In this document: positions 9,145 to 58,248 of the stretch, one piece after another
Numbering within the stretch: position 1 is the first letter of the stretch
Layout: every line of letters starts with the position of its first letter
Source of the DNA: Escherichia coli
Lineage (GTDB): Bacteria; Pseudomonadota; Gammaproteobacteria; Enterobacterales; Enterobacteriaceae
NCBI RefSeq assembly: GCF_013122565.1
Contig: NZ_CP053258.1
Length of the DNA stretch: 64,000 nucleotides
Reading direction: 5' to 3' (one strand)
The notes under the pieces: generated by a model
Told to the model about the DNA's origin: nothing
Databases searched by the model: none
What the model saw: only the letters and a program-made list of their open reading frames with translations
Made by a program: the position numbers and the translations under genes

Positions 9145-9816
9145 ATGATGAAGTTAGTTCACTTATTTATGGATGAAATCACTATGGATCCTTTGCACGC
9201 CGTTTACCTGACCGTAGGACTGTTCGTGATTACTTTTTTTAATCCGGGAGCCAATCTCTTTGTGGTAGTACAAACCAGCCTGGCTTCCGGTCGACGCGCA
9301 GGGGTGCTGACCGGGCTGGGCGTGGCGCTGGGCGATGCATTTTATTCCGGGTTGGGTTTGTTTGGTCTTGCAACACTAATTACGCAGTGTGAGGAGATTT
9401 TTTCGCTTATCAGAATCGTCGGCGGCGCTTATCTCTTATGGTTTGCGTGGTGCAGCATGCGCCGCCAGTCAACACCGCAAATGAGCACACTACAACAACC
9501 GATTAACGCACCCTGGTATGTCTTTTTTCGCCGCGGATTAATTACCGATCTCTCTAACCCGCAAACCGTTTTATTTTTTATCAGTATTTTCTCAGTAACA
9601 TTAAATGCCGAAACACCAACATGGGCTCGTTTAATGGCCTGGGCGGGGATTGTGCTCGCATCAATTATCTGGCGAGTCTTTCTTAGTCAGGCGTTTTCTT
9701 TGCCCGCTGTGCGTCGTGCTTATGGGCGTATGCAACGCGTTGCCAGTCGGGTTATTGGTGCAATTATTGGTGTATTCGCGCTACGCCTGATTTACGAAGG
9801 GGTGACCCAGCGGTGA
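9145..9816 (+). CDS. yahN: LysE/RhtB-family amino acid exporter YahN
   Basis: 223-aa polytopic membrane ORF MMKLVHLFMDEITMDPLHAVYLTVGLFVITFFNPGANLF... Confidence 0.85.
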   Translation: MMKLVHLFMDEITMDPLHAVYLTVGLFVITFFNPGANLFVVVQTSLASGRRAGVLTGLGVALGDAFYSGLGLFGLATLITQCEEIFSLIRIVGGAYLLWFAWCSMRRQSTPQMSTLQQPINAPWYVFFRRGLITDLSNPQTVLFFISIFSVTLNAETPTWARLMAWAGIVLASIIWRVFLSQAFSLPAVRRAYGRMQRVASRVIGAIIGVFALRLIYEGVTQR

Positions 9817-9832
9817 GCAGATAATTTACTCT

Positions 9833-10078
9833 CTACGTAATCAACCTGATTTGCCGAATCCCGACCATCGGCGATGATAGCCCCCGTAATGCGTGGTCCT
9901 TATTTCCGATAAGTTTACTTGAGTCTTTAGCTTCCCATTTCAGCCCACTCTCCCCTGTGTGGGCTTTTTTCATTGGTCTGACCCGTCCTGAATAGCCAAA
10001 CAATGGCAATGTTCCACTTTGCAGGGATGATAATAAGGGGATCTGATTCAGAAGAGTTTTGAAAAGTTGGACCGCCAT
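9833..10078 (-). CDS. yahM: small hypothetical protein (81 aa from internal Met; yahM position)
   Basis: ORF track 9833..10108; assignment by position and length only; contains the yahN terminator and overlaps a tRNA-like element, so coding status is doubtful. Confidence 0.4.
   Translation of the reverse strand: MAVQLFKTLLNQIPLLSSLQSGTLPLFGYSGRVRPMKKAHTGESGLKWEAKDSSKLIGNKDHALRGLSSPMVGIRQIRLIT
9943..9970 (+). terminator. rho-independent terminator downstream of yahN
   Basis: Stem gcccac/gtgggc with 10-nt loop followed by TTTTTT. Confidence 0.6.
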
Positions 10079-10148
10079 CGAGGCCTCGAACCCCGTACCA
10101 TACAACAATCCTGGTTGTCGTCTGCTCTTCCTGATGAGCTAATGGCGG
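10068..10148 (-). other. tRNA-like element (possible tRNA pseudogene or relic attachment site)
   Basis: Minus strand: acceptor stem CCGCCAT/ATGGCGG (7 bp), D-arm GCTC-ATCAGGAA-GAGC, T-arm CGGGG-TTCGAGG-CCTCG, encoded CCA; anticodon region atypical (ACAAC-CAGGATT-GTTGT, A at position 33) with extra nucleotides. Confidence 0.5.
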
Positions 10149-31979: not shown

Positions 31980-34900
31980 TTATTTAGCCGCTTCTTCTCC
32001 CTTTGCCGTATCTTCTGCCACGGCGGTAATGGTCACCGTCACTGGCTTCATTTCGTACCCGCCATAGGTCAGGGCGTTAAATGTGAACGTATAGACACCA
32101 GGCTTGCTGGTACTAAATGTACGCGTGATTTTTCCGCTCACGAAATGGTCATTTTTCGACGGCAGGAACTGATAATCCTTCTCCGTCACCCCTTCCGGCG
32201 TCTGAATGTCGACCCACATATTCCCCCCAACGGGGTTGTTTGCCGACATCAGTGTCACCTCCAGCTTCGCAGTCGATTTCCCATCCGCCACCAGAGATTG
32301 CACATCAGATGATGCGGTGAGTACCGCATTTTTATCATCCGCGACGAATTTAGATTCGGCAGTTTTCGTCGATACCTGACCGTTGTTCTGACTCACTTGC
32401 GCCGTGAGTGTATATGTCGCCGCAACAGTAGTGGTAGCGGTGAAAATAGCCTGCCCTTGCTCATTCGTTGTCGCAGTGCCATTCGGTTCCAGGTTTAACG
32501 AAGCCGGGCTGGCAGTCAGCGTCACTTCGCTATCTTTCAACAGGTTGTTATTGGCATCAGTCACCGTAACTTTATACGTTTGTTTGGCTTTGCCGTCCGC
32601 CAGCGCATAGTTGCCAATCACCTCAATACCGGAGACGGTTGCGGTAGCCTTATCGGCTACAAACGTTATAGTCTGCGTATTCGAAGGCTGGCTATTCCCT
32701 GCCGATGCCGTGATCTCATACGTTCCGGCAGTCACTGAAACCACCTGCAACTCTGCTTTCCCCTCATCGTTGGCTTTCACCCAGACATTATCGCCTGTAA
32801 GCGGCTTGACACCCCGGGGCAGATTAAAGGTCACCAGGCTCCCTGGAACAGGGTTACCATTTTTATCCTCAACGGTCGCCGTCAGCGTAAAGGCATCTTT
32901 GCCGTTTGCCACTTTTTGAACGGCGGTGTCTACCTGCAGGTTTGCCTGACCGGTGCTGGCATCCGCGTTGAATTTCACCGTGACCGTCTTCTGAGCACCA
33001 TTCACCGAAGCGGAAATATTGTGTTCTCCCGCAACCGTTGACATAAGCTCAATGTCCACTTTCCCTGCCGCATTGGTTGTTACTGTATTCCCCGTCTTGC
33101 TGGTCACACCCTGCGGTAAAGTCAGCGTAACTTCTTGCCCCTGCAACGGGTTACCATAGCTGTCCACGACGGTCAGGGTTATCTGGTTAGCAGACTGTCC
33201 ATTAGCCAGTTGGTTATTAACCTTCACTGTCATATCACGAATATCAGCCTGAGAAGCGTCCCCTGCAACGTTCAGCACCAGTGGCTGAGCAACAGCATTT
33301 TGGCCGTTCACTCGCGGCATCACAGACAACTGACCCGCAGCCGATCCCAGCGTTAAGGTCGCCACGTAGACCCCATTACCTTTCTCTGTCCAGTTTCCTG
33401 CTGAAGGACGCTCACTCCCCGTGCTGGCGGCACCGCTAAACACTGGTGCATCTGGCTTCAGCCCGGTGACCGGGTTCCCGTACGCATCCTTCACGGTGAA
33501 GGTGAGTTCCGTCGTCGTTTTGACGGTCGGAGCCTTATTGTCCGCAACAAGCGTAGAGTTCGCTGATGACATCTCTCCGGCGATGACCGTCAACTGCGCG
33601 GCTTCGGTGGCTGCTGGCTGGCCGTTGAAGAGCGGCATGACACGAAGCTCGCCCGTCTTTCCGCCTGTAGTCAACGTAGCAACATAGGAACCGTCACCTT
33701 TTTCGGTCCAACTGGAAACGGTCGCCCCTTCAGAGGCGGTCCCCGTCAAACTTGCCGACAACGCAAGACCACTGATAGCGTTGCCATGCGCATCTTTCGC
33801 CACCAGCATCACGGTTGTGCTTTCGCCGGCTTTTACGTGATCTTCTGCGACAGAGACTTTCGACTGGTTTGAAGATAACGCATCAGCCACCACGGTTACT
33901 TTTGCCGCATTTGCTGCCGCATCCTGTCCATTTAGCTTCGGCATAACTTCTAATTCACCCGCCGTAGAGCCGAGAGTAATCTGCGCAGTCCACGTCCCAT
34001 CACCATTATTTGTCCAGCCCGATGCCGTAGAACCTACAGCAGCGGCACCCGCTAATGACGGCGCTTCCGGCGTGAGGCTGGTCACAGGGTTGTCATAGGC
34101 ATCTTTTACCGTCCAGATTGCCGTAACTGTACCCCCAACCACCGGTTTATCAGGATTCAGGGTGATGGACGAATGTGCTGCATCAAGCGGCCCGGCAACA
34201 AACTTCAGCGTTTGTTGTAATGTGCCCAGCTGATACTGCTCGCTGAAGGCACGCACAACAACATTTCCTGCGCGAGTCGAAGAAACCGTAGCGCTGTAAA
34301 CCCCTGGTTTTATTTCCGAAATGGCACCAACGGTAACACCATTAATGTCTTGCGGAACAAGTCGCAGGCGGCTGGCTTCTCCCGTCACCGGATTACCCTC
34401 GGAGTCCACCGCAGTCAACGTCAACGTATAGGCTTGCTGACCATCAGCAACCACGTCACCTGACGGCTCGTTAGCGCTCAGGGTGGAGTTTGCCACATCC
34501 ATCATCGTGGCCCGCAGTTCTGCAGTGACGGTTTTGCTCATGCCATCAACGCTAACAGTAATCGTTGCCTCACCTGACTGCGTTCCGGTAGTAAAGACAG
34601 ACTGATACACCCCTGCTTCAGTTTCGGTGAACTCACCCAGTGTTGGCTTTGCCTGTGATTTAGTGGACTTCAGGGAACGAGTCACAATATTTCCAGCCGG
34701 TTTGAAGGCTAGTTCAGTCTTGATCTGATCTTTCATGCCCGTGACTGGCTGGCCCTCGGCGTCGCGCAGAGACAGCACCAGCGGTCTTTGCTCATTACCG
34801 TTAGCAAGCATTTGAATACGGCTCTGACCGTCAAGCGTTAACGCCGTGCGATCGGCACTCATACCTGCTCCGGTAATGACCACCTCTGTCTGCACGCGTT

Positions 34901-36233
34901 TTGAGGCATTGCCTTTGTTATCGTAGGCAACCGCAGAAATCGCATAATAATTGTCTTTGCCTGCCTGGTAAGCCGGGAGCGTCACTTGCCACTGATTACC
35001 CTGCCCCGTAATTTTTCCGCCTGCGGCCAGCAAAGACGGCGCTTCCCATTGAACATTTTTCAGACCGTGAGTTGCTTTACTCACCACAAGCCCCAGGGAA
35101 ACCGTCTGCCCGCCCTTGCCTTCAATACGTTCAGGCAGAGCAATACGGATCACTTCAGATTTGCGGTACTCAAGAACGATGTTGTTATTACGCTCAACCA
35201 GGTCATAGCGGCTGCCTGCCAGCATTCGACGCTCGCGAATGCTGTCTGTATCGAGTTGTTTTTGCAGAGGTTCGCCAATCCGATAATTAACTTCCAGGCC
35301 AAAGCGAGTGTCATTCTCACCACTCTTGCCCTGCTTATGCCCGGCACTCAGGGTCAGAAGAGGCACTGGCGTATAGGTCACCTCGGCAGAAATAGCATGC
35401 GGGTCTTTCTGGCGTTTATCTTTACCAAACAGCCCGACTTCATCGCCATAATACTGTTCATACATCAGGCTTGCGCCAAGCTGCGGCCAGGCGGGTAAAT
35501 AGCCCTCAGCACGAATATCCCAGCCATTCGCCGGGCGTTCCTGATAATCCTCAACATCCGGCGATTTTTTCCAGCCAGAAGCCCGGATATAACCATTGGC
35601 GCTCAGTTTCAAATAATCACGCCAGTATTCCGCACCAACACCAATGCGGGTATGACTACGGGATAAATCATGGTCGATAAAGGTGTTCACCCCCGCCATC
35701 CAGTCATTTCCTGAAAAATGACGCCAGCCAAAACCAATATTTGACTGAGTGCGATCATCTGTACGATGTATTGCCCCCTGAGTGAACAACATATTTGTCG
35801 GCGTATCATAAATAGGATAAAGCATTTCCAGAGAAGAATCCTTCAGCGAGAAATCTTTATCGACATTGAGTTTGACGCGCGCAGTACCGTATTTCCCGAG
35901 CCACTCCTGTATTTCCTGGTTAGCTTTAGCGGTGGCCATTCCGGTAATAAAGTTACGTGTCGCATCGCTATCTGGCTGACTGCTTAAAAAATTCCCAGCA
36001 TTTGCGGCAAACGACGCGACATTTTTCTCCACATTATTATCAGCAGCTACTGTGGTATTTTCCATGCTCAACCGTGGCTGAACCGCATGCTGCGCGCGTG
36101 CCGCCATTACTGGGGTAAAGGTGACCGCGAGTGGAAAAAGAACCTGAACAGAGATATTTGCCCACGCCACACAGCGGGCCAGAACTGAATAACGAAATCG
36201 TGGTTGTTTATGACCTGTTTTATAACGCGACAT
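31980..36233 (-). CDS. eaeH: intimin/invasin-family outer-membrane adhesin, full length (EaeH/FdeC)
   Basis: 1417-aa ORF; N-terminal beta-barrel region followed by many tandem Ig-like repeats; truncated pseudogene in K-12 as I recall. Confidence 0.85.
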   Translation of the reverse strand: MSRYKTGHKQPRFRYSVLARCVAWANISVQVLFPLAVTFTPVMAARAQHAVQPRLSMENTTVAADNNVEKNVASFAANAGNFLSSQPDSDATRNFITGMATAKANQEIQEWLGKYGTARVKLNVDKDFSLKDSSLEMLYPIYDTPTNMLFTQGAIHRTDDRTQSNIGFGWRHFSGNDWMAGVNTFIDHDLSRSHTRIGVGAEYWRDYLKLSANGYIRASGWKKSPDVEDYQERPANGWDIRAEGYLPAWPQLGASLMYEQYYGDEVGLFGKDKRQKDPHAISAEVTYTPVPLLTLSAGHKQGKSGENDTRFGLEVNYRIGEPLQKQLDTDSIRERRMLAGSRYDLVERNNNIVLEYRKSEVIRIALPERIEGKGGQTVSLGLVVSKATHGLKNVQWEAPSLLAAGGKITGQGNQWQVTLPAYQAGKDNYYAISAVAYDNKGNASKRVQTEVVITGAGMSADRTALTLDGQSRIQMLANGNEQRPLVLSLRDAEGQPVTGMKDQIKTELAFKPAGNIVTRSLKSTKSQAKPTLGEFTETEAGVYQSVFTTGTQSGEATITVSVDGMSKTVTAELRATMMDVANSTLSANEPSGDVVADGQQAYTLTLTAVDSEGNPVTGEASRLRLVPQDINGVTVGAISEIKPGVYSATVSSTRAGNVVVRAFSEQYQLGTLQQTLKFVAGPLDAAHSSITLNPDKPVVGGTVTAIWTVKDAYDNPVTSLTPEAPSLAGAAAVGSTASGWTNNGDGTWTAQITLGSTAGELEVMPKLNGQDAAANAAKVTVVADALSSNQSKVSVAEDHVKAGESTTVMLVAKDAHGNAISGLALSASLTGTASEGATVSSWTEKGDGSYVATLTTGGKTGELRVMPLFNGQPAATEAAQLTVIAGEMSSANSTLVADNKAPTVKTTTELTFTVKDAYGNPVTGLKPDAPVFSGAASTGSERPSAGNWTEKGNGVYVATLTLGSAAGQLSVMPRVNGQNAVAQPLVLNVAGDASQADIRDMTVKVNNQLANGQSANQITLTVVDSYGNPLQGQEVTLTLPQGVTSKTGNTVTTNAAGKVDIELMSTVAGEHNISASVNGAQKTVTVKFNADASTGQANLQVDTAVQKVANGKDAFTLTATVEDKNGNPVPGSLVTFNLPRGVKPLTGDNVWVKANDEGKAELQVVSVTAGTYEITASAGNSQPSNTQTITFVADKATATVSGIEVIGNYALADGKAKQTYKVTVTDANNNLLKDSEVTLTASPASLNLEPNGTATTNEQGQAIFTATTTVAATYTLTAQVSQNNGQVSTKTAESKFVADDKNAVLTASSDVQSLVADGKSTAKLEVTLMSANNPVGGNMWVDIQTPEGVTEKDYQFLPSKNDHFVSGKITRTFSTSKPGVYTFTFNALTYGGYEMKPVTVTITAVAEDTAKGEEAAK

Positions 36234-43732: not shown

Positions 43733-43808
43733 TGGTGCCGATAAGAGGAGTCGAACCTCCGACCTTCGCATTACGAATGCGCTGCTCTACCAACTGAGCT
43801 ATATCGGC
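43733..43808 (-). tRNA. thrW: tRNA-Thr (anticodon CGU)
   Basis: Minus strand GCCGATATAGCTCAGTTGGTAGAGCAGCGCATTCGTAATGCGAAGGTCGGAGGTTCGACTCCTCTTATCGGCACCA; full cloverleaf, anticodon loop TTCGTAA, encoded CCA. Confidence 0.92.
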
Positions 43809-43922
43809 CCTGAAAGGACATGTTCACGAACGTGAATCACGGTGGACAAGGTTAAAACTAACCGGGCGATGCGTCAATGGCCTTGTGAATCAAATGGCTA
43901 CTTTTGCATCACCCGGTTTTAT

Positions 43923-45176
43923 TTACGCACGAATGGTGTAATCACCAATGCCGATCCACTTGTAAGTGGTCAGTGCTTCCAGCCCCATTGGGCCACGCGC
44001 GTGGAGTTTTTGTGTGCTTACCGCCACTTCCGCACCCAGACCAAACTGGCCGCCGTCGGTAAAACGCGTAGAGGCGTTAACGTAAACAGCGGACGAATCC
44101 ACTTCGTTAACAAAACGCTGGGCGTTGCGCATATCGCGGGTCAGGATCGCATCGGAGTGTTGTGTGCCGTGTTCACGAATATGGGCGATGGCATCGTCAA
44201 GATCGCTGACGATTTTGACGTTCAAATCTAATGACAGAAACTCATCGTCATACTCTTCGGCTTTAACCGCCACCACCTTCGCGGGGCCTGTCTGCAACTG
44301 CGCCAGCGCAGCAGCATCTGCGTGTAACGTCACGCCGCTTTCCGCCATTTGCTTGCTTAATGCGGGCAGGAAGCTATCGGCGATGTTTTTATTTACCAGC
44401 AACGTTTCTACCGTATTACATGTGCTCGGACGCTGAGTTTTCGCGTTGACGATCACTTTTAATGCTTCAGCGATCTCTGCACTTTCATCAACGTAAATAT
44501 GGCATACGCCTATACCACCAGTGATCACCGGGATTGTCGACTGTTCGCGGCACAGTTTATGCAAACCAGCGCCACCACGCGGGATCAGCATGTCGATGTA
44601 TTTATCCATACGCAGCATTTCACTGACCAGCGCACGGTCAGGATTATCAATCGCCTGCACGGCACCCGCCGGTAAGCCACAGGATTTCAGGGCGTCCTGA
44701 ATCACCGCCACCGTTGCCGCGTTAGTGCGACAGGTTTCTTTGCCACCACGCAGGATCACCGCATTACCGGTTTTCAGGCACAGCGAAGCGACATCAACCG
44801 TCACGTTCGGGCGCGCTTCATAAATCACGCCAATAACCCCCAGCGGTACGCGACGACGCTCAAGACGCAGGCCGCTGTCCAGTACGCCGCCATCGATTAC
44901 CTGCCCCACCGGATCGGCGAGATTGCACACCTGGCGCACATCGTCGGCAATGCCTTTCAGCCGTGCGGGCGTCAGTGCCAGACGGTCAAGCATCGCTTCG
45001 CTAAGGCCATTGGCACGCGCGTCAGCAACATCCTGGGCGTTAGCGTTGAGGATGATTTCGCTTTGTGCTTCCAGTTCATCGGCGATTTTTTCCAGCACGC
45101 GATTTTTTTCGCGGCTGGAGAGTTGCGCTAATTTATACGAGGCTTGCTTCGCGGCAATGCCCATTTGTTCCAGCAT
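43923..45176 (-). CDS. proA: gamma-glutamyl phosphate reductase
   Basis: 417-aa [41 protein letters not shown]... Confidence 0.93.
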
Positions 45177-45187
45177 CAGCCTGCTCC

Positions 45188-46291
45188 TTAACGGGTAATC
45201 ATGTCATCACGGTGAACGGCAACCGGGCCGTATTCATATCCCAGTATTGCATCAATTTCTTGCGAGTGGTGTCCGGCAATACGGCGTAATGCATCGCTGT
45301 TGTAACGACTGACGCCGTGAGCGATATCGCGACCTTCGAGGTTGCAAATGCGGATGACTTCACCACGCGAGAAATTGCCAGTCACGCTTTTAATGCCTTT
45401 CGGCAACAGGGAGCTGCCGCGTTCAAGAATGGCGGCAGTTGCCCCTTCATCTACCGTGATTTCACCCGCCGGCGGCGCACCGAAAATCCAGCGTTTACGG
45501 TTTTCAAGCGGAGTCGCCTGGGCATGGAACAACGTACCGACGGAAATGCCTTCCATCACATCACCAATAACGCCCGGCTTGCTGCCCGCGGCAATAATGG
45601 TGTCGATACCCGCACGGCAAGCCACGTCTGCGGCCTGCAATTTGGTACTCATGCCGCCAGTTCCGAGGCCTGAAACGCTGTCACCGGCAATCGCGCGCAG
45701 TGCGTCATCAATGCCGTAAACATCTTTAATCAGTTCTGCCTGCGGATTGCTGCGCGGGTCAGCGGTATACAAACCTTTTTGATCGGTCAGCAGCAACAGT
45801 TTATCGGCACCCGCCAGAATCGCCGCCAGCGCAGAAAGGTTATCGTTATCGCCGACCTTAATCTCTGCCGTAGCGACAGCATCGTTCTCATTGATTACCG
45901 GAACGATATTGTTATCGAGCAACGCTCGCAGGGTGTCGCGGGCGTTCAGGAAGCGTTCACGGTCTTCCATATCAGCACGGGTCAGCAGCATCTGCCCGAC
46001 GTGAATGCCATAAATCGAAAACAGCTGTTCCCACAGTTGAATCAGTCGACTCTGCCCTACCGCCGCCAGCAGTTGTTTCGAGGCGATAGTCGCTGGCAGT
46101 TCCGGGTAACCCAGGTGCTCACGTCCGGCGGCGATCGCGCCCGACGTCACAATAACAATCCGATGCCCGGCGGCATGTAACTGCGCGCACTGGCGAACAA
46201 GTTCAACGATATGGGCACGGTTCAGGCGGCGCGATCCGCCTGTTAGCACACTGGTGCCGAGTTTTACCACCAGCGTCTGGCTGTCACTCAT
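45188..46291 (-). CDS. proB: glutamate 5-kinase
   Basis: Start at [19 protein letters not shown] (367 aa); ORF track starts 29 codons upstream. Confidence 0.92.
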
Positions 46292-46479
46292 GATTCTCTG
46301 CCATTCAATTTTAGGAAAAATGATATCAAACGAACGTTTTAGCAGGACTGTCGTCGGTTGCCAACCATCTGCGAGCAAAGCATGGCGTTTTGTTGCGCGG
46401 GATCAGCAAGCGTAGCGGCAGTTGTTTACGCTTTTATTACAGATTTAATAAATTACCACATTTTCAGAATATTATTAAT

Positions 46480-46497
46480 CTGTAATATATCTTTAAC
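46480..46497 (+). promoter_or_regulatory. Pho box (PhoB binding site) of phoE promoter
   Basis: CTGTAATATATCTTTAAC, about 80 nt upstream of phoE start. Confidence 0.65.
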
Positions 46498-46578
46498 AAT
46501 CTCAGGTTAAAAACTTTCCTGTTTTCAACGGGACTCTCCCGCTGAATATTCGCGCGTTAATTAAAATCAGGAATGAAA

Positions 46579-47634
46579 ATGAAAAAGAGCACTCTGGCAT
46601 TAGTGGTGATGGGCATTGTGGCATCTGCATCCATACAGGCCGCAGAAATATATAACAAAGATGGTAATAAACTGGATGTCTATGGCAAAGTTAAAGCCAT
46701 GCATTATATGAGTGATAATGACAGTAAAGATGGCGACCAGAGTTATATCCGTTTTGGTTTTAAAGGTGAAACACAAATTAACGATCAACTGACTGGTTAT
46801 GGTAGGTGGGAAGCAGAGTTTGCCGGTAATAAAGCGGAGAGTGATACTGCACAGCAAAAAACACGTCTCGCTTTTGCCGGATTGAAATATAAAGATTTGG
46901 GTTCTTTCGATTATGGTCGTAACCTGGGCGCGTTGTATGACGTGGAAGCCTGGACCGATATGTTCCCGGAATTTGGTGGCGACTCCTCCGCACAGACCGA
47001 CAACTTTATGACCAAACGCGCCAGCGGTCTGGCGACGTATCGGAACACCGACTTCTTCGGCGTTATCGATGGCCTGAACTTAACCCTGCAATATCAAGGG
47101 AAAAACGAAAACCGCGACGTTAAAAAGCAAAACGGCGATGGCTTCGGCACGTCATTGACATATGACTTTGGCGGCAGCGATTTCGCCATTAGTGGGGCCT
47201 ATACCAACTCAGATCGCACCAACGAGCAGAACCTGCAAAGCCGTGGCACAGGCAAGCGTGCAGAAGCATGGGCAACAGGTCTGAAATACGATGCCAATAA
47301 TATTTATCTGGCAACTTTCTATTCTGAAACACGCAAAATGACGCCAATAACTGGCGGCTTTGCCAATAAGACACAGAACTTTGAAGCGGTCGCTCAATAC
47401 CAGTTTGACTTTGGTCTGCGTCCATCGCTGGGTTATGTCTTATCGAAAGGGAAAGATATTGAAGGTATCGGTGATGAAGATCTGGTCAATTATATCGATG
47501 TTGGTGCTACGTATTATTTCAACAAAAATATGTCAGCCTTTGTTGATTATAAAATCAACCAACTGGATAGCGATAACAAATTGAATATTAATAATGATGA
47601 TATTGTCGCGGTTGGCATGACCTATCAGTTTTAA
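46579..47634 (+). CDS. phoE: phosphate-starvation porin PhoE
   Basis: Start at [21 protein letters not shown] (351 aa); ends ...VGMTYQF. Confidence 0.93.
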
Positions 47635-47672
47635 TGGATATTGCCGGATGTGATGCATCCGGCACATTTCAC

Positions 47673-48131
<459 letters not shown>

Positions 48132-49376
48132 TTAACACAAACGTTTTTCGATCCAGTCGGTGATTTCCTGAAGACCTTTGTCAAAATTCCGATACACCGG
48201 GTTAAATGGGATCTCTAATAATTTACCGTCAGCAGATGATGAGGTGATTAAGCGTGAGTCCTCTTCCGGGCTGAACGGATCGTTCTTCCAGTAGCCTGAT
48301 AACATTGGCGTTGGGCAGCGACGTCCCAGCAATCCTTGCACTTTTAATGAATAGCGATTCAGCTCCACGCGCAACGCTTCGTCGGAAGCATCATGCATCC
48401 CCAAACGACTCGCCAGAACGTCAAGATACATTTCCGGCACCTGTTGCTGGCACTTAAAATCACTCAACAGGGTATGAACTACCGGACCAAGACAGGCAAC
48501 CGCTTTCAGACGCGGCGATTCAAGGTATGCCAGACGCACTGCAACGTTAGCGCCGAAACGGAAACCAAAGGCCGCGACGCGAGTGTGATCCACCCACGGT
48601 ACGTTAGGCAGCGCCTTTAAGACGTGCTGATGCAACAGGCTGGAGTCCTGGGTGAGCTTCCATTTTGAAGAAAAGCCCACCGACGGCATATCAATAGTCA
48701 GCATCGCAATGCCGCGCGGCGCAAAATAACGTTCATACAGGCTGTAATAGTCCGTCTGCATCGCATCCAGACCACCACACATTAATACTGTCGGGAACGG
48801 GCCATCGCCTTTCGGCATATGCAAAAAGCCGGTGATGGGCGCACCGCCGGGTACGGTAAACTCCATCTGCCGCATCGTGCCCGGCAGACGCTGAGCGGCC
48901 TCTTCATAGGCGCGGTTTGACAAAGCCTGCGCTTGCTCAGCCAGGTCATCTCCTTTCAGATGAGGATAGGCGGCAATGTTGTACAACGTAGCCGCATGAA
49001 GCCAGTGTCGACCACTGAGTTGCGGATCTTCTTCCGCACAGGCTTTTTGTTGCCACACCATCGCCTGGGTGGCCCACTCATAAATCCAGTTGCCGCCGCG
49101 GTAGCCAATCACCGTATCGTATAAATCATCGTCGGTACGTTCGGCATCGCTCATCACAATACGGGCCTGGACGTCGAGGATTTCACGTGGGTCAATGCCG
49201 CGCCAGATCCACATCAGACGGTTAATCATGCGATACCAGTGAGGGATGGTTTTACCATCAAGGGCCGACTGCACAGGCGGTTGTGCGCCGTGATTAAAGC
49301 GGCGGACTAGCGTCGAGGTTTCAGGATGTTTAAAGCGGGGTTTGAACAGGGTTTCGCTCAGGTTTGCCTGTGTCAT
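48132..49376 (-). CDS. frsA: esterase FrsA (alpha/beta hydrolase)
   Basis: 414-aa [30 protein letters not shown]... Confidence 0.9.
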
Positions 49377-49467
49377 GGATGCAGCCTCCAGAATACTTAC
49401 TGGAAACTATTGTAACCTGCCTGAAGTTAAAAAGAACAACGCCCGGCAGTGCCAGGCGTTGAAAAGA

Positions 49468-49926
49468 TTAGCGACCGGAGATTGGCGGGACGAATACGAC
49501 GCCCATATCCCACGGCTGTTCGATCCAGGTATCTTGTGGGATATCAACAACATAATCATCAACCAGCGGACGACCAGCCGGTTTTGCGAAGATGGTGACA
49601 AAGTGCGCTTTTGGATACATTTCGCGGATTGCCACTGCAGTACCACCGGTATCCACCAGGTCATCAATTACGATGAAGCCTTCGCCATCGCCTTCTGCGC
49701 GTTTCAGCACTTTAAGCTCGCGCTGGTTGTCGTGATCGTAGCTGGAAATACAAACGGTATCGACATGACGAATACCCAGTTCACGCGCCAGTAACGCACC
49801 CGGTACCAGACCGCCACGGCTTACGGCAATAATGCCTTTCCATTGTTCAGAAGGCATCAGTCGGCTTGCGAGTTTACGTGCATGGATCTGCAACATGTCC
49901 CAGGTGACGATGTATTTTTCGCTCAT
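49468..49926 (-). CDS. gpt: xanthine-guanine phosphoribosyltransferase
   Basis: 152-aa [42 protein letters not shown]... Confidence 0.93.
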
Positions 49927-50186
49927 GTGAAGTGTCCCAGCCTGTTTATCTACGGCTTAAAAAGTGTTCGAGGGGAAAATAGGTTGCGCGAGATTATAGA
50001 GATCTGGCGCACTAAAAACCAGTATTTCACATGAGTCCGCGTCTTTTTACGCACTGCCTCTCCCTGACGCGGGATAAAGTGGTATTCTCAAACATATCTC
50101 GCAAGCCTGTCTTGTGTTGACAACATTTTCTGCTAACCCTGTGACCTGCAATACTGTTTTGCGGGTGATCGACAAGGAGACTTAAC

Positions 50187-51644
50187 GTGTCTGAACTGTC
50201 TCAATTATCTCCACAGCCGCTGTGGGATATTTTTGCCAAAATCTGTTCTATTCCTCACCCGTCCTATCATGAAGAGCAACTCGCTGAATACATTGTTGGT
50301 TGGGCAAAAGAGAAAGGTTTCCATGTCGAACGCGATCAGGTAGGTAATATCCTGATTCGTAAACCTGCTACCGCAGGTATGGAAAATCGTAAACCGGTCG
50401 TCTTACAGGCCCACCTCGATATGGTGCCGCAGAAAAATAACGACACCGTGCATGACTTCACGAAAGATCCTATCCAGCCTTATATTGATGGCGAATGGGT
50501 TAAAGCGCGCGGCACCACGCTGGGTGCAGATAACGGCATTGGTATGGCGTCTGCGCTGGCGGTTCTGGCTGACGAAAACGTGGTTCACGGCCCGCTGGAA
50601 GTGCTGCTGACCATGACCGAAGAAGCCGGTATGGACGGTGCGTTCGGCTTACAGAGCAACTGGTTGCAGGCTGATATTCTGATTAACACCGACTCCGAAG
50701 AAGAAGGTGAAATCTACATGGGTTGTGCGGGGGGTATCGACTTCACCTCCAACCTGCATTTAGATCGTGAAGCGGTTCCAGCTGGTTTTGAAACCTTCAA
50801 GTTAACCTTAAAAGGTCTGAAAGGCGGTCACTCCGGCGGTGAAATCCACGTTGGCCTGGGTAATGCCAACAAACTGCTGGTGCGCTTCCTGGCGGGTCAT
50901 GCAGAAGAACTGGACCTGCGTCTTATTGATTTCAACGGCGGCACACTGCGTAACGCCATCCCGCGTGAAGCCTTTGCGACCATTGCTGTCGCAGCTGATA
51001 AAGTCGACGCCCTGAAATCTCTGGTGAATACTTATCAGGAGATCCTGAAAAACGAGCTGGCAGAGAAAGAGAAAAATCTGGCCTTGTTGCTGGACTCTGT
51101 AGCGAACGATAAAGCTGCCCTGATTGCGAAATCTCGCGATACCTTTATTCGTCTGCTGAACGCCACCCCGAACGGTGTGATCCGCAATTCCGACGTGGCA
51201 AAAGGTGTGGTCGAAACCTCCCTGAACGTCGGTGTTGTAACCATGACCGACAACAACGTAGAAATTCACTGTCTGATCCGTTCTCTGATCGACAGCGGTA
51301 AAGACTACGTGGTGAGCATGCTTGATTCGCTGGGTAAACTGGCTGGCGCGAAAACCGAAGCGAAAGGCGCATATCCTGGCTGGCAGCCGGACGCTAATTC
51401 TCCGGTGATGCATCTGGTACGTGAAACCTATCAGCGCCTGTTCAACAAGACGCCGAACATCCAGATTATCCACGCGGGCCTGGAATGTGGTCTGTTCAAA
51501 AAACCGTATCCGGAAATGGACATGGTTTCTATCGGGCCAACAATCACCGGTCCACACTCTCCGGATGAGCAAGTTCACATCGAAAGCGTAGGTCACTACT
51601 GGACACTGCTGACTGAACTGCTGAAAGAAATTCCGGCGAAGTAA
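50187..51644 (+). CDS. pepD: cytosol nonspecific dipeptidase PepD
   Basis: 485-aa GTG-start ORF MSELSQLSPQPLWDIFAKICSIPHPSYHEEQLAEYIVGWAKEKGF... Confidence 0.92.
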   Translation: MSELSQLSPQPLWDIFAKICSIPHPSYHEEQLAEYIVGWAKEKGFHVERDQVGNILIRKPATAGMENRKPVVLQAHLDMVPQKNNDTVHDFTKDPIQPYIDGEWVKARGTTLGADNGIGMASALAVLADENVVHGPLEVLLTMTEEAGMDGAFGLQSNWLQADILINTDSEEEGEIYMGCAGGIDFTSNLHLDREAVPAGFETFKLTLKGLKGGHSGGEIHVGLGNANKLLVRFLAGHAEELDLRLIDFNGGTLRNAIPREAFATIAVAADKVDALKSLVNTYQEILKNELAEKEKNLALLLDSVANDKAALIAKSRDTFIRLLNATPNGVIRNSDVAKGVVETSLNVGVVTMTDNNVEIHCLIRSLIDSGKDYVVSMLDSLGKLAGAKTEAKGAYPGWQPDANSPVMHLVRETYQRLFNKTPNIQIIHAGLECGLFKKPYPEMDMVSIGPTITGPHSPDEQVHIESVGHYWTLLTELLKEIPAK

Positions 51645-51700
51645 TTATTTGATTTGCTGCCGGATGGCGTTCAATCACCTTCCGGCAGTTTCATCCTTCA

Positions 51701-52315
51701 TTATCCTTCGATAAAAGCCATCCCTGTAAATGTCCGTCGCGGGTTGCCACGTTCAATCTGGTGATGGAACATTCGCCGCTGCGATTTCAGCACCGCGCTA
51801 TTCTCCTGTTGCTGTTGTTCCAGCTTCCAGGCAATCAGCAATCGCGCCAGCCGTTTGTTAGCATGCTGGCTGCGCTCTGACTGAACCTTCACGCTAATAC
51901 CGGATGCCAGATGCGTGGCACGTACCGCCGAGTCGGTTTTATTGACATGTTGACCGCCCGGCCCCGACGAACGCAGCGTCTCATACCGGATCGCATCGGA
52001 TTGCCCCTGCTCATCAGCGGTAAAACGCCCAATGCCCAGAAACCAGTTTTTACGCCCGTGATGTGGGCGATACGGGCTCGGGCAAATCCACTGAATAGTG
52101 CCACACCAGCTTTCGCTTAACGCCCATGCGTTGTCGCCATCCAGAGAAATCAGCGCCGAACGCAGCGTGTCAGAGTAGCGGCCTGTTTCTGTTTCCAGCA
52201 CCGTTACCGCGACGTCTTGTCGGGCAGTTTCTTTAATTAGCCTGTCCAGCGCCTTTTTCACTGCGAGACAACATTCTTCCGGCCCCTGCGCTGAGGAGAG
52301 TTGTAGCAAGATCAT
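51701..52315 (-). CDS. prfH: release-factor-like protein PrfH (GGQ motif, no codon-recognition domain), apparently intact
   Basis: Start at [21 protein letters not shown] (204 aa) overlapping rtcB stop in ATGA; GGQ motif in [11 protein letters not shown]. Confidence 0.8.
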
Positions 52316-53463
52316 CCTTTTTTCCCTCCACTGTTTTTGAGCGTTAGCACCGGACGCAGTCGCGCGACAGGAATAATTAACCCAGCCTGCACCAGACATT
52401 GCACCACGCTTTCAGCCGATTTATAAGCTTGTGGCGCTTCTTCAAAGATGAGTTGTTTATCGCGACAAATTACCCGGCTGCCAAGTTCAGTACGCGAGAG
52501 TTGCGTCACCGTGTATTTCGCTGCCAGACGCCCTTTACAATCGGTGCGCCCCCATTTACGCCCAGCCCCATGCGCCAGCGAATGCAATGTTTCCTCACTC
52601 CTGACGGGCTGAACCAGCCAGGAGTAATCACCGCGTGAACCGGGAATAACCACCAGACCACAGTCATCAGGCGTGGCACCTTTACGATGTAAGACCCCTT
52701 GTTGATCACCGATTCGACACGCGCTAACAAAGTTATGCGCCACATCCAGAACCGGACTTCCGGTGGCCTTAACCTGTTGCATTATGCGCAAAGCGATCAG
52801 CTGGCGATTAATACGCGCAAACGCCAGCGCATCGTCATGTTCCGCAATATAACGTAGCGCGTCGTCACTGCCTTCAGGCAAACCATGATGCGAAAACGAG
52901 GCAATATGCCGCTGTAAAATAGACTGCCCTAAACCACGCGAGCCGCTATGAACCAACAGTTGCAGATGCTGCGCATCCAGACCTGCCAGTGCAAACAGTT
53001 CAGCGTTGATGATTTGATCAACTTGTTGCAGTTCAGCGAAATGATTGCCGCCACCGATAGAGCCAAGCGAGCTGCGCCACGGATGCTGTGCAAATGCTGA
53101 CGGCAGGTTTTCCTCCAGCCAGCTTTCTTCAGCAACGTCATCCAAAGCTGATAATCGCTTTTCAAACTTATCGGCGTTGTATTTGCGAGCGAGAATATCT
53201 GTTTGCCATAGCGCCATGCCGCAGCCGATATCATTGCCGACCAGTGCCGGGTAAAAACGACCAACTGAGAAGAACGCTGCGCCAATCGGGTAGCCGCGTC
53301 CGGGATGTAAATCTGGCATCCCCACTACGCGCTGCATGTTGGGTAAATTTGCCGTGGTGTGTAATTGTTGGATCGCTAAACTCTCGATCCACAGGTCATC
53401 AGATGCGATGGTAAATACCGCATCGGATAAGGGACGAATATATTTGCCCATGTACCATTCCAT
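52312..53463 (-). CDS. RtcB-family RNA ligase paralogue (RtcB2), apparently intact
   Basis: 383-aa ORF with RtcB-like His/Cys-rich segments (...[16 protein letters not shown]..., ...[10 protein letters not shown]..., ...AHGAGRK...); translationally coupled to prfH. Confidence 0.75.
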
Positions 53464-53768: not shown

Positions 53769-54221
53769 TTAATGTTGCGGTTTATATCGCATATAAAAAT
53801 TAGTAAACCACGCACCCCGGCATTCAACGCGCTGCTGCTTAACTGTCTGAAAACCATAACGTTCAAAAAAGGGTTTTGCGGTTATGCTGGCGTCCACCGT
53901 AAGTTCGGATTCAGACTTAATCCAAGGTTTTAACAAAGCACTGGCAACCCCACGGCGGGTGTATTCAGGGTCAACAAATAACATATCGATATAATGTTCA
54001 ATGCGGGAAATAAAACCAACCGGTTGTGCATTAATGACTGCAACCCGCACTTGTGATTTCGCGAGTTTCTCCTTCCAGCGAGATTCGTCAATCTGCGCCC
54101 AGACTGCAATTTGTTGTGGTGAATAATGCTCACTGGCTGTCATCGTAACCGCTCTAATGAAAATAGCGCATAGTTGCTGAAAATCGCCAGGCTGATAGTT
54201 TCTTATTTGTATGTTATTCAT
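53769..54221 (-). CDS. yafP: GNAT-family acetyltransferase YafP
   Basis: 150-aa [28 protein letters not shown]...; start overlaps dinB stop (ATGA). Confidence 0.85.
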
Positions 54222-55273
54222 AATCCCAGCACCAGTTGTCTTTCCATTTGAGGGTCAAGCAACGTCACATGCAGCCCCACCAGTCGCACACCGCGCCCGC
54301 CGCGGCGTTCATCCCAGGTTTTACGCGCGGTGGCGATTAGATCAGCTTTATTCAGCCGCGGCCAGACGTGCTCCTGGGTGGTTTGCTGAAAATCGTCGAA
54401 CTTTAATTTCACCCCCTGGCGAGCAATCAGTAAATCAGGTTTTACCTTTGCCAGACGGCGTTCAAGTTCCGGATACAGCCGCTCGATAATCGCTTCACAT
54501 TCAGACCAGTGATGAATATCTTCCGCCATCGTGCGTTCCACGCCGACGGATTTTCGCAACCGTTCGCTGTTAACATCGCGTTCGTCAATCCCCTGACTAC
54601 GCTCCCACAAAATGCGGCCAAATTTGCCAAAACGTTTAAGCAACGTCACCAGATCACACTTTTGTACATCACCGCAGGTCCGCAGCCCCATCGCTTCCAG
54701 TTTTGCCGCCGAGACTTTGCCGACGCCGGGGATTTTTGCCAGTGGTAAGGTTTGTAAAAATGCCGGAACTTCTGCCGGCGTAATCACAAACTGGCCGTTG
54801 GGTTTATTCATGTCGGAGGCGATTTTGGCGAGAAACTTTACTGGTGCCACGCCCGCAGACGCCGTCAGTTGCAGCTCGCTGAAAATCGTCTGGCGGATTT
54901 CCTGGGCGATGAGGGTCGCAGAACCGTGGCAATGGACGCTATCGGTGACATCGAGATAAGCCTCATCCAGTGACAACGGTTCAATACGCGAGGTGTAACG
55001 CGAGAAGATTTCACGGATATGATTTGAGGCTTCTTTGTAGGCGTCAAAGCGCCCCGGAAGCAAGGTGAGATGTGGGCATAATTTGAGCGCCATCCCAGTA
55101 GGCATAGCGCTACGTACGCCAAATTTACGCGCGGGATAATTGGCGGTGCTGATCACCCCCCGACGTTCGCGGCTGCCGCCAATAGCAATAGGGATATCGC
55201 GCAGGGCGGGATTGTCGCGCATCTCCACTGCGGCGAAAAAGCAGTCCATATCCACATGAATGATTTTACGCAT
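54218..55273 (-). CDS. dinB: DNA polymerase IV (Y-family)
   Basis: 351-aa [61 protein letters not shown]... Confidence 0.95.
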
Positions 55274-55287
55274 TGCTCACCTCTCAA

Positions 55288-55303
55288 TACTGGTAAAGTA
55301 TAC
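55288..55303 (-). promoter_or_regulatory. LexA box (SOS operator) of dinB
   Basis: Minus strand CTGTATACTTTACCAG (CTG-N10-CAG) immediately upstream of dinB. Confidence 0.8.
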
Positions 55304-55343
55304 AGTGATTTCAGGGTTTGAGAAATGCGTAAAGATTCAGCAT

Positions 55344-56234
55344 TTAACGCGTTCGCTGCGAAAGCACCTGCTGCTTATCCAGCTTTTGCACCAGTGGCTG
55401 CACCACTTTATCCCCATGCTGACCAAAGTATTGATACAGCGTATCGGACGCACTTTTGGTCAGCACCATAATCTCAATACGCCGATTGCCCGCACTTTGC
55501 GGATTTTTCGCGTCCAGCAGCATCTGGTCCGCCATTGCGCTTACCTGCATCACTTTATCTTCCGGCATTCCTGCCTCTTCCAACACCCGACGAGCCGAAA
55601 GCGCGCGGTCACCCGAAAGGTTCCAGTTGTTGTAGATATTGTTTTTGTAAGCCATCGCATCGGTATGCCCGGTAATAATAATTTTGTTATCGAGCGAGTC
55701 GAACACTGGCGCGAGCTCCACCAGCAAAGTTTTAAAGAACGGCATAATCTGCGCGCTGCCGCGTTCGAACATATTGCGGTTCTGGTCGTCTTTAATCAGC
55801 ACGCGTAATCCCTGCGGGACAATCTCCATCTCCAGATTCGCTTCCATATGCGCATCACGGGCAATGGTGTTGATACTGGTTGCCAGCTCGCCAAGCTCGG
55901 TGGCGGATTTCTTCTTCAGCAGCGCCGTATTCTCGTTGACGTCGCGCGCTTTTTTCTCCGTCTCTTCCGGCACCGCCACGGTGGCAGGTTTTGGCGGATG
56001 AGACGGGCTGATTTTATTTAACGGCGACAACCCGCCACCATTGAAAATCGACTGCCCGTGCAGCGCGGCGATAATGCTTTCACGCTCGGATTTACTGACG
56101 CTGTTGACAATCAACTTTATTGTCGTCACCAAAGGGGCCGAGCGTATTTCCGAGGTTTCCGCCCGCTTTACCCTGGACGCGATGCCCGGCAAACAGATGG
56201 CGATTGACGCCGACCTTAACGCCGGGTTGATCAA
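55344..56234 (-). pseudogene. lafU: lafU fragment (MotB-like C-terminal OmpA-type domain), Flag-2 remnant
   Basis: ORF C-terminal region has MotB/OmpA-like peptidoglycan-binding domain (...IIITGHTDAMAYKNNIYNNWNLSGDRALSARRVLEEAGMPEDKV...NRRIEIMVL); N-terminal TM part absent; upstream 190 nt overlap the fhiA ORF on the other strand, so the true 5' boundary is uncertain. Confidence 0.6.
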
Positions 56235-57813
56235 CCAGGCGCAGGCGCAAACCCGGCGTAAAGATGTTGCCAGCGAGGCCGATTTCTACGGCGCGATGGA
56301 CGGGGCATCGAAGTTTGTGCGCGGGGACGCCATCGCCGGGATGATGATTCTGGCGATCAACCTGATCGGCGGCGTCTGTATCGGCATCTTCAAATACAAC
56401 CTGAGCGCCGACGCTGCCTTCCAGCAGTATGTGCTGATGACCATCGGCGACGGCCTGGTGGCGCAGATCCCTTCCCTGCTGCTCTCCACCGCGGCCGCGA
56501 TTATCGTCACCCGCGTCAGCGATAACGGCGATATCGCCCATGACGTGCGCCACCAGCTGCTGGCAAGCCCGTCGGTGCTCTACACCGCCACCGGGATCAT
56601 GTTCGTGCTGGCGGTGGTGCCGGGGATGCCGCATCTGCCGTTTTTGCTGTTCAGCGCCCTGCTTGGCTTTACCAGCTGGCGGATGAGCAAACGCCCGCAG
56701 GCGGCGGAGGCGGAAGAGAAAAGCCTCGAAACGCTGACCCGCACTATCACCGAAACCAGCGAGCAACAGGTCAGTTGGGAAACCATTCCACTGATCGAGC
56801 CCATCAGCTTAAGCCTTGGCTACAAGCTGGTGGCGCTGGTGGACAAAGCACAGGGTAACCCGCTCACCCAACGTATTCGCGGCGTGCGGCAGGTGATTTC
56901 TGACGGCAACGGCGTGCTGCTGCCGGAGATCCGCATTCGGGAAAACTTCCGCCTTAAGCCGAGCCAGTACGCCATTTTCATCAACGGCATTAAGGCTGAT
57001 GAAGCAGATATTCCGGCGGATAAACTGATGGCCCTGCCCTCCAGCGAAACCTACGGCGAGATTGACGGCGTGCTGGGGAACGACCCGGCGTACGGGATGC
57101 CGGTGACCTGGATCCAGCCCGCGCAGAAAGCGAAGGCGCTGAATATGGGGTATCAGGTAATCGACAGCGCCAGCGTGATTGCCACCCATGTGAACAAGAT
57201 TGTGCGCAGCTATATTCCTGATTTATTTAATTATGATGACATCACGCAGTTGCATAACCGTTTGTCGTCGATGGCACCGCGCCTGGCGGAGGATTTAAGC
57301 GCGGCGCTCAATTACAGCCAGTTGCTGAAAGTGTACCGGGCGCTGCTGACCGAAGGCGTTTCCCTGCGCGATATTGTCACCATCGCCACCGTGCTGGTCG
57401 CCAGTAGCACAGTGACCAAAGATCATATTCTGCTGGCGGCCGATGTGCGCCTGGCGCTGCGGCGCAGCATTACCCATTCGTTCGTTCGCAAGCAGGAGCT
57501 GGCGGTGTATACGCTGAATAATGAGCTGGAAAATCTGCTGACCAACGTGGTGAATCAGGCGCAACAGGGCGGCAAAGTGATGCTCGACAGCGTGCCGGTG
57601 GACCCGAATATGCTCAACCAGTTCCAGAGTACGATGCCGCAGGTAAAAGAGCAGATGAAAGCGGCGGGGAAAGACCCGGTGCTGCTGGTGCCGCCGCAGT
57701 TGCGCCCTTTGCTGGCGCGCTACGCAAGGTTGTTTGCGCCGGGGCTGCATGTGCTGTCGTATAACGAAGTGCCGGATGAGCTTGAGTTGAAGATTATGGG
57801 GGCGTTGAGTTGA
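56041..57813 (+). pseudogene. fhiA: fhiA/lfhA fragment (FlhA homologue lacking N-terminal region), Flag-2 remnant
   Basis: FlhA-like motif ...INFIVVTKGAERISEVSARFTLDAMPGKQMAIDADLNAGLI... begins about 20 codons into the ORF; junction with the lafU fragment lies in 56041-56234. Confidence 0.6.
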
Positions 57814-57849
57814 TGGCTTTTAAGAAACGCAATACGATGACATCAATTT

Positions 57850-58248
57850 ATGACGTCAGGGATTGATAAGATGATGAAAACGCGTTCATTAATATCTCAA
57901 GCATCGAACATTATCACAATTAAAGGTCAACCAGCCGCAGTGACATTTGAAGCCGATATCAACGCATTTCGCGGCAAGTTCCTCAATGTAAACGGTTATT
58001 GTGACTTTGTAGCCACAAGTATTGAGGCATTATATCGTGAAGGCGAAAGCGCGCTGGATGAGTGGATGGCGGATTGTGAAGAGGACGGTATTGCCCCTTT
58101 TCGTGAAGAAGAAGAGCAAAAACGCCTGACGCTTCGTGTTCCTCATCACATTGATTCGCGGCTGACCATCGTCGCCAGACAACATTCCATTTCAAAAAAC
58201 CAGCTCATTATTGATGTCTTAGAACGTGAGTTTTCAGCCCAGATGTAA
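57850..58248 (+). CDS. HicB-like antitoxin-family protein (N-terminal HicB fold plus C-terminal ribbon-helix-helix), no HicA partner found
   Basis: 132-aa ORF; C-terminal RHH-like segment KRLTLRVPHHIDSRLTIVARQHSISKNQLIIDVLEREF; strong terminator immediately downstream. Confidence 0.55.
   Translation: MTSGIDKMMKTRSLISQASNIITIKGQPAAVTFEADINAFRGKFLNVNGYCDFVATSIEALYREGESALDEWMADCEEDGIAPFREEEEQKRLTLRVPHHIDSRLTIVARQHSISKNQLIIDVLEREFSAQM

Follow-up and report, generated by a model that had tools for sequence, protein, structure and literature searches.

A Flag-2 deletion scar, lafU'/lfhA', in an Escherichia coli window and the probable recurrence of its exact junction in other haplotypes and genera

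Two flagellar gene remnants between dinB and yafL

This study concerns two divergent gene remnants of the lateral flagellar cluster Flag-2 in Escherichia coli contig NZ_CP053258.1; the analysed DNA is a 64-kb stretch of it only, here called the window, whose positions are used throughout. The list of open reading frames (ORFs) gives a minus-strand ORF of 296 aa at 55344..56234 and a plus-strand ORF of 590 aa at 56041..57813, which point away from each other and share the 194 nt from 56041 to 56234. A Pfam search of the 296-aa ORF returns OmpA alone (8.4e-15, residues 155-248), with no match to PF13677, the transmembrane (TM) and plug family, and its alignment to the 307-aa LafU begins at residue 53; full-length LafU relatives carry both PF13677 and PF00691, truncated relatives PF00691 alone. 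The 590-aa ORF matches FHIPEP (4.4e-189) over profile positions 99-656/657, which shows that its N-terminus is missing, and its alignment begins at codon 131 of LfhA. The first-pass annotation had read the two as a MotB-like C-terminal lafU fragment on the minus strand and an FlhA-like fhiA fragment without its N-terminus on the plus strand, with divergent ORFs overlapping by about 190 nt, and all of this holds. The lafU' stump is the 3' 83% of lafU, with an unbroken frame of 255 codons, and retains the OmpA-like peptidoglycan-binding domain, while the N-terminal TM helix and the MotB_plug region are gone; lfhA' is the 3' 81% of lfhA, in which about three N-terminal TM helices are gone and the cytoplasmic domain and the rest of FHIPEP are kept. 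Neither product qualifies as a functional member of its class: the first lacks the PF13677 match and residues 1-52 of a MotB/LafU stator and has no lafT (the MotA/LafT partner) at the window locus, and the second lacks profile positions 1-98 and 130 codons of an FlhA-type export gate. The stumps sit between dinB and a hicB-like gene followed by yafL, and the context taken from ORFs, identities and annotated loci is dinB on the lafU side and yafL, dinJ-yafQ and dpaA on the lfhA side. Among the large ORFs of the window there are no other flagellar genes.

The breakpoint was placed against the intact Flag-2 cluster of E. coli EC1 (NZ_CP058574.1, our locus L003), which lies between dinB and the lfhA-side flank and has a lafU of 307 aa at 9154..10077 on the minus strand and an lfhA of 697 aa at 45660..47753 on the plus strand. 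By blastn, window 55200-56112 corresponds to L003 9010-9922 at 94.7% identity and window 56101-57821 to L003 46041-47761 at 95.7%, and in a three-way base-by-base alignment the lafU-side match ends at 56112 and the exact lfhA-side match begins at 56110 (L003 46050). This alignment to an intact locus, which the first-pass annotation had suggested, places the breakpoint to the nucleotide at a shared ATC (Table 1) within the sequence ...GACAATCAACTTT..., and neither fragment aligned to a full-length gene without truncation. The lafU-side copy of the imperfect repeat at the junction is CTGTTGACAATC and the deleted lfhA-side copy is CTGATGATCATC, with 9/12 identity, so the true overlap of homology is 3 nt, or 12 nt with the imperfect repeat, and not 190 nt. 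The sequence gone from the window amounts to 36,130 bp relative to EC1 and to 36,097 bp relative to our second intact reference, E. coli FAM21845 (NZ_CP017220.1), and the two flanking homologies abut, which bears out the earlier claim of an internal deletion that removed the whole of Flag-2 and left two outward-facing terminal genes, each truncated at its 5' end. The losses comprise the first 155-158 nt of lafU (codons 1-52), and with them the membrane helix ...FADFTLAMMALFMTLW and the MotB_plug region, and the first 390-393 nt of lfhA (codons 1-130).

What does not survive is the idea that the overlap of the ORFs is itself the signature of the deletion. On these alignments, the homology of the stumps to lafU and lfhA is far above chance, and the 194-nt overlap is a chance read-through past the 3-nt junction without biological meaning, because 69 nt and 122 nt of it are open frames in the antisense of the opposite stump; by the same token, the extension at 56113..56234 is an open-frame artefact and not lafU sequence. 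RefSeq starts lafU' at a GTG at 56129 and gives lafU as 786 nt in K-12 and others. A promoter scan returned weak consensus matches only, with a weak sigma-70-like match at 56048-56075.

Table 1. Coordinates of the remnants, their open-frame extensions and the junction in the window
Feature	Position	Strand	Description
lafU' (mbhA) remnant	55344..56112	-	LafU codons 53-307, stop and last base of W52
lfhA' (fhiA) remnant	56110..57813	+	LfhA codons 131-697 and stop; 567-codon frame unbroken
lafU' ORF 5' extension	56113..56234	-	122 nt, open frame through antisense lfhA'; TTG at 56234
lfhA' ORF 5' extension	56041..56109	+	69 nt, open frame through antisense lafU'; TTG at 56041
Junction	56110..56112		Shared ATC; lafU W52/I53 (minus), lfhA I131 (plus); crossover within 3 nt
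Imperfect 12-nt direct repeat, surviving copy	56101..56112		Overlap of the blastn matches

The window locus is therefore the canonical Flag-2 deletion scar lafU'/lfhA', formerly mbhA/fhiA, which is already known and ordinary. Its junction is base-identical in E. coli K-12 MG1655, O157:H7, IHE3034 and 7/2, with the surrounding 200 nt collinear. Among 5426 complete E. coli genomes, 4071 (about 75%) carry window 55300-57900 as one contiguous match, and in the remaining genomes among the matches listed the match splits at the junction (query position 802/811). The stump sequences are retained in 5425 of these genomes, and the interior ends of the Flag-2 cluster are present in 1330. The scar is credited to Ren et al. 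2005 by Archer et al. 2011 (PMC3032704), by PMC5369007 and by PMC6993521. The latter (De Maayer et al. 2020) also states that among 100 strains analysed all 76 Flag-2-negative ones have truncated copies, and that lfhA/lafU pseudogene pairs occur in 531 of 4028 Enterobacterales strains, including Citrobacter clade A; a study of sequence type ST131 describes a remaining lfhA fragment of '1700 bp' and a lafU fragment of '769 bp' (PMC5369007).

The junction on different haplotypes and in other genera

Within E. coli, the same junction is found on haplotypes that are well separated from each other. The intact loci of EC1 and FAM21845 are 4-5% apart over the entire cluster as well as its two flanks; neither site shows a discontinuity, and the junction has its closest differences at -69 and +11 nt. 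A scar constructed in silico from the FAM21845 flanks (2500 + 2500 nt) is contiguous and 100.0% identical in at least 14 genomes, among them CFSAN051542, whose scar is confirmed by annotation, and a scar constructed from the EC1 flanks (2000 + 1750 nt = 3750 nt) has 100.0% matches in at least 8 genomes, among them M7424, which has the internal stop of yafO and the flanking protein accessions in common with EC1. A search with the lafU side of FAM21845 gave intact genomes only among the matches listed. The scar alleles are not monophyletic, for at more than about 150 nt from the junction the distance between two scars equals that between a scar and an intact allele and that between two intact alleles. 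On the lfhA side, K-12 is clonal with FAM21845 from the junction onward, with 1 mismatch in 6.3 kb. The dinB-yafL region as a whole is hyper-diverse (dS 0.1-0.26 between E. coli alleles); the best identity of window 55300-57900 to any of the complete genomes is 96.0-96.5%, and the nearby proA-proB-phoE-frsA-gpt-pepD block (43900-51700) reaches up to 98.7%. The intact cluster of FAM21845 is degenerate, with an internal stop in flgF and an IS1 that interrupts a CadC/LafZ-like regulator, and since this cluster was inactivated while still in place, functional decay can come before clean deletion.

The evidence from other genera comes from a protein search with the lafU' ORF together with contig look-ups. 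Truncated LafU proteins with OmpA only were found in E. albertii, Citrobacter spp., Kluyvera spp., Dryocola, Atlantibacter hermannii and Ewingella, where a 58%-identical truncated LafU is assigned to Ewingella (Yersiniaceae) by cluster membership. These proteins have a junction peptide in common, (V/M)TT(I/M/T)KL joined to IV(N/S)SV, in which VTTIKL comes from lfhA codons 131-136 read in antisense and IVNSV from LafU 53-57. Contigs of Kluyvera, C. amalonaticus, A. hermannii and Ewingella carry a 5'-truncated FHIPEP gene back to back with truncated lafU, and in all four lfhA' is an unbroken frame of 567 codons; the genes that flank the Atlantibacter and Ewingella scars are unlike those of E. 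coli. At the DNA level these junctions read AAGTT(G/A)AT joined to (T/C)GT, at the same codon positions, on genus-specific sequence, with a microhomology of GAT or AT alone. The LafU' of the Kluyvera scar is identical in amino acids to full-length Kluyvera LafU, Ewingella scars likewise match the lafU of their own genus, being no nearer to one another (94.8%) than to an intact Ewingella allele (94.6-96.2%), and clusters at 90% identity mix full-length and truncated LafU in Ewingella, Dryocola and Citrobacter. Between the A. hermannii scar and intact A. subterraneus, dS is 1.04 and dN 0.033 (dN/dS 0.032).

Two further observations belong to this survey. A contig scan with a 48-nt pattern of the E. 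coli junction, which is species-specific, returned only two mis-binned contigs of metagenome-assembled genomes, both short and both with the exact E. coli junction, one under Collinsella sp. (JAIJJM010000815.1) and one under Clostridiales bacterium (SFGJ01000062.1); the bins are almost certainly contaminated with E. coli. At the intact Flag-2 cluster of Citrobacter sedlakii, a large serine recombinase gene (2213-2999 of our locus L022; domains Resolvase, Recombinase and Zn_ribbon_recom) starts about 200 nt downstream of lafU and probably belongs to an element inserted beside the cluster.

Probable recurrent deletion and its rivals

The stumps look conserved in the way that genes do. In five scar-bearing E. 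coli sequences neither frame has an interruption or an indel, and dN/dS between scar alleles is 0.015-0.056 for lfhA' (dS 0.16-0.26) and 0.00-0.09 for lafU' (dS 0.09-0.18); lafU' of 7/2 and O157 are separated by 24 synonymous changes and no non-synonymous one. Between intact alleles, lfhA has a dN/dS of 0.011-0.030 at comparable dS. The four non-synonymous changes that seem 'private' to the K-12 stump of lfhA occur also in the intact, degenerate FAM21845 allele. We consider the stumps most likely to be inert, their conserved look reflecting the youth of each scar in comparison with its intact parent allele and not a function. Intact frames and low dN/dS do not prove a gene fragment functional.

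We favour, with a good deal of confidence, an explanation in which the canonical scar was made by a deletion of about 36 kb, this exact deletion has recurred, and the stumps are conserved through the youth of the scars. The identity of the stumps, their truncations, the base-exact junction and the match to K-12 and to about 75% of E. coli are observed. One deletion would join lafU codon 52/53 to lfhA codon 130/131 via the 3-nt ATC microhomology and would take out all 40-odd lateral-flagellar genes in between as well as the promoter, 5' end and membrane anchor of either terminal gene, and such deletion in situ on each haplotype would produce each scar. From sequence comparison, it is probable that the exact deletion arose many times: two or more deeply diverged haplotypes of E. 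coli and six or more genera, from two families, would have undergone it; this recurrence would be new relative to the literature read for this analysis, the scar itself being already known. Deletion in situ is also the simpler course, because transfer of a scar between haplotypes needs crossovers within the -69/+11 nt around the junction. Recurrence at the same two sites would mean that some position-specific process acts there, and it seems rather likely that an unrecognised process of deletion or excision clears the 36-kb cluster.

Several points weigh against this explanation. Scars with exact flanks could come from a very short junction patch, with arms of about 60-70 nt, of another scar haplotype, and the intact state could be regained by recombination from a donor of the same haplotype. 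On the lafU side, K-12 and FAM21845 are 2.2% diverged beginning 69 nt from the junction, and therefore an endpoint of recombination or replacement coincides with the scar. Private changes number 12N:42S in scars vs 6N:50S in intact alleles, a slight excess of non-synonymous changes in scars that runs in the direction expected of relaxed selection but is suggestive only and not significant (Fisher p = 0.13). The microhomology at the junction is only 2-3 nt. No recombinase is annotated in the EC1 and FAM21845 clusters, nor was one found by Pfam among the hypothetical proteins, and a host-encoded enzyme would be possible. The reciprocal circle or tandem junction (...CTGATGATCATCCACAGCG...) occurs in 0 of the 5426 complete E. 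coli genomes, which is a weak negative since finished assemblies rarely hold circles. Moreover, the presence of Flag-2 is termed an 'insertion' in the ST131 literature, where subclade typing defines it relative to the scar-bearing subclade B1 (PMC5369007).

Could all of this descend from a single event? A single ancestral deletion in the E. coli/Shigella lineage, passed down by descent and also carried between lineages by homologous recombination, would agree with the identical junction in all E. coli examined, with the 75% of genomes that bear the scar, with the truncated copies in every Flag-2-negative strain counted in PMC6993521, with the mosaic structure of the scar alleles and with the K-12/FAM21845 divergence boundary, which at 69 nt or less from the junction would be a recombination endpoint; the diversity of the remnants would then have been imported from intact alleles or would predate their separation from them. 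Such a history is unlikely, as it leaves unexplained why six other genera, a member of Yersiniaceae among them, have the same junction on genus-specific sequence, and it needs crossovers at 11-69 nt or less from the junction on both sides to give scars that are 100% identical over 3.75-5 kb to two intact haplotypes 4-5% apart. The gene-like conservation invites a different thought, namely that the junction formed once, long ago, and that the stumps are an old functional two-gene module under purifying selection, made up of an FlhA-like protein without its N-terminus and a LafU fragment with the OmpA domain, either soluble or periplasmic. The exact 567- and 255-codon frames in all scars examined (five from E. 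coli and four from other genera), the low dN/dS ratios given above over dS of 0.09-0.26, the dN/dS of 0.032 at a dS of 1.04 in Atlantibacter and the retention in all but one of the complete E. coli genomes speak for it, as do the fact that RefSeq calls lafU' a coding sequence and the hypersensitivity of the Keio mbhA deletion mutant, which was strongly reduced in a 2026 ciprofloxacin-tolerance screen (PMC13131330). Intact alleles, however, show equally low dN/dS, and scars are identical to intact alleles of the same haplotype or genus and have therefore had no time to decay. Start codon and ribosome-binding site are also unconserved, with starts that vary by genus and fall in antisense lfhA, the membrane anchors are gone, the promoter-like match is weak, the Keio phenotype could be due to polarity on dinB, which lies 70 nt downstream, and both alleles would have to persist across families, so that we regard a functional module as very improbable.

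Least probable of the alternatives is that Flag-2 is an island that excises and integrates reversibly, the lafU and lfhA sites being the att sites of a host-encoded site-specific recombinase and the scar an empty attB at which integration rebuilds the intact genes. The precision of the junction to the nucleotide and its recurrence fit this, as do the inference of Flag-2 as an insertion relative to ST131 subclade B1, the 12-nt perfect palindrome TGATGATCATCA at the lfhA site, which includes GATC, and the imperfect inverted repeat (13-14/21 matches) that the lost segment has at its inner ends. No cognate integrase or recombinase, however, is annotated or detected in the clusters of EC1 and FAM21845, the reciprocal junction was not found in the complete E. 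coli genomes, and the shared core is 2-3 nt; interior and flanks diverge together, and a comparison of EC1 with FAM21845 shows a discontinuity at neither site, nor do six intact lfhA alleles show one. The likeness to inverted repeats is itself explained by an F-x-x-L-x-I transmembrane motif encoded at both sites, the breakpoints ending similar stretches (...L-F-M-T-L-W before I53 in lafU, ...V-F-I-I-L-M-I130 before I131 in lfhA). Insertion at a specific site was rejected as a mechanism because of the missing discontinuity at the two sites.

Homology does not account for the choice of site. In the EC1 cluster, direct repeats whose copies lie more than 5 kb from each other include 240 exact 12-mer and 44 exact 16-mer pairs, and the junction uses 3 nt; homology-driven slippage was rejected as a sufficient cause in view of these hundreds of better direct repeats. 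We also rejected rayT, the REP-associated transposase gene beside lfhA in K-12, as the agent, since neither the window nor the scars of other genera contain it. The core motifs of dif, hix/gix, fim and integron attC, compared by eye only, gave no match at the sites. If recurrent deletion is true, it points to an uncharacterised deletion mechanism, the loss of lateral flagella would be a high-rate directed switch and not random decay, the 'insertion' markers of ST131 may be repeated losses, and the presence or absence of Flag-2 in phylogenies would have to be read differently.

Neighbouring genes and comparison with known systems

Beyond the lafU side of the scar, in window 53769-55273, the stop of dinB (54218) overlaps the start of yafP (54221), and the yafN-yafO toxin-antitoxin pair that separates these genes in K-12, O157:H7, IHE3034 and 7/2 is absent; adjacency of dinB to the acetyltransferase gene may be ancestral because Kluyvera and C. 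amalonaticus have the same arrangement. On the lfhA side, a plus-strand ORF at 57850-58248 encodes a HicB-family antitoxin (Pfam 3.4e-10) at the position of rayT in K-12, and among the five reference loci it is common only to 7/2 (95.5%). No hicA lies upstream of it, because it begins just 36 nt from the lfhA' stop; in strain BS90R-A, hicA-hicB follow an intact lfhA. Further away, the minus strand carries at 51701-53463 an rtcB-family ligase gene (383-aa ORF) with an adjoining prfH-like ORF, a pair that is full length here and in IHE3034 and EC1 and present as fragments only in K-12, O157 and 7/2. The minus strand also encodes, at 31980-36233, a full-length inverse autotransporter of 1417 aa with IAT_beta and repeated Big_1/Invasin_D3 domains. 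Two tRNA genes were noted in the window, tRNA-Thr(cgt) at 43733-43808, which adjoins proA and is apparently without an inserted prophage, and tRNA-Ser(gga) at 10068-10148; prp and bet operon genes lie upstream.

Precise excision of Tn10 and Tn5 is a case of replication slippage between short direct repeats that are brought together by flanking inverted repeats. It is independent of transposase, as Egner and Berg and also Foster et al. are said to have reported in 1981. The Flag-2 scar bears some resemblance to it, as the ATC direct repeat abuts imperfect inverted repeats and the event would be both precise and repeatable. The dimensions differ, with a direct repeat of 3 nt vs 9 and inverted repeats of about 21 nt at 62-67% vs about 1.3 kb, so the Flag-2 repeats appear far too weak for efficient slippage over 36 kb and the likeness to Tn10/Tn5 would be one of analogy only. 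The intact Flag-2 cluster, represented by strain 042 in the literature and by EC1 and FAM21845 here, has homologous terminal genes at the same site between dinB and yafL; unlike it, the window is without about 36.1 kb, from lafT to lfhB, and without lafU codons 1-52 and lfhA codons 1-130. A close known counterpart is the K-12 pair lafU (mbhA, b0230) and lfhA (fhiA, b0229), which has the same stumps in the same divergent orientation, the same base-exact junction and dinB likewise adjoining. The window allele is about 96% identical to this pair (96.5% in lafU' and 95.9% in lfhA') and differs from K-12 in its neighbours, with the hicB-like gene in place of rayT and no yafN-yafO between dinB and yafP. 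The pseudogene pairs of De Maayer et al., as described in the available part of PMC6993521, show the same en bloc loss with the outermost genes alone left; there they are recorded as present or absent by BLAST, without junction positions. The present analysis places the join of the two stumps at one and the same codon and nucleotide in Kluyvera, Citrobacter, Atlantibacter, Dryocola, E. albertii and Ewingella.

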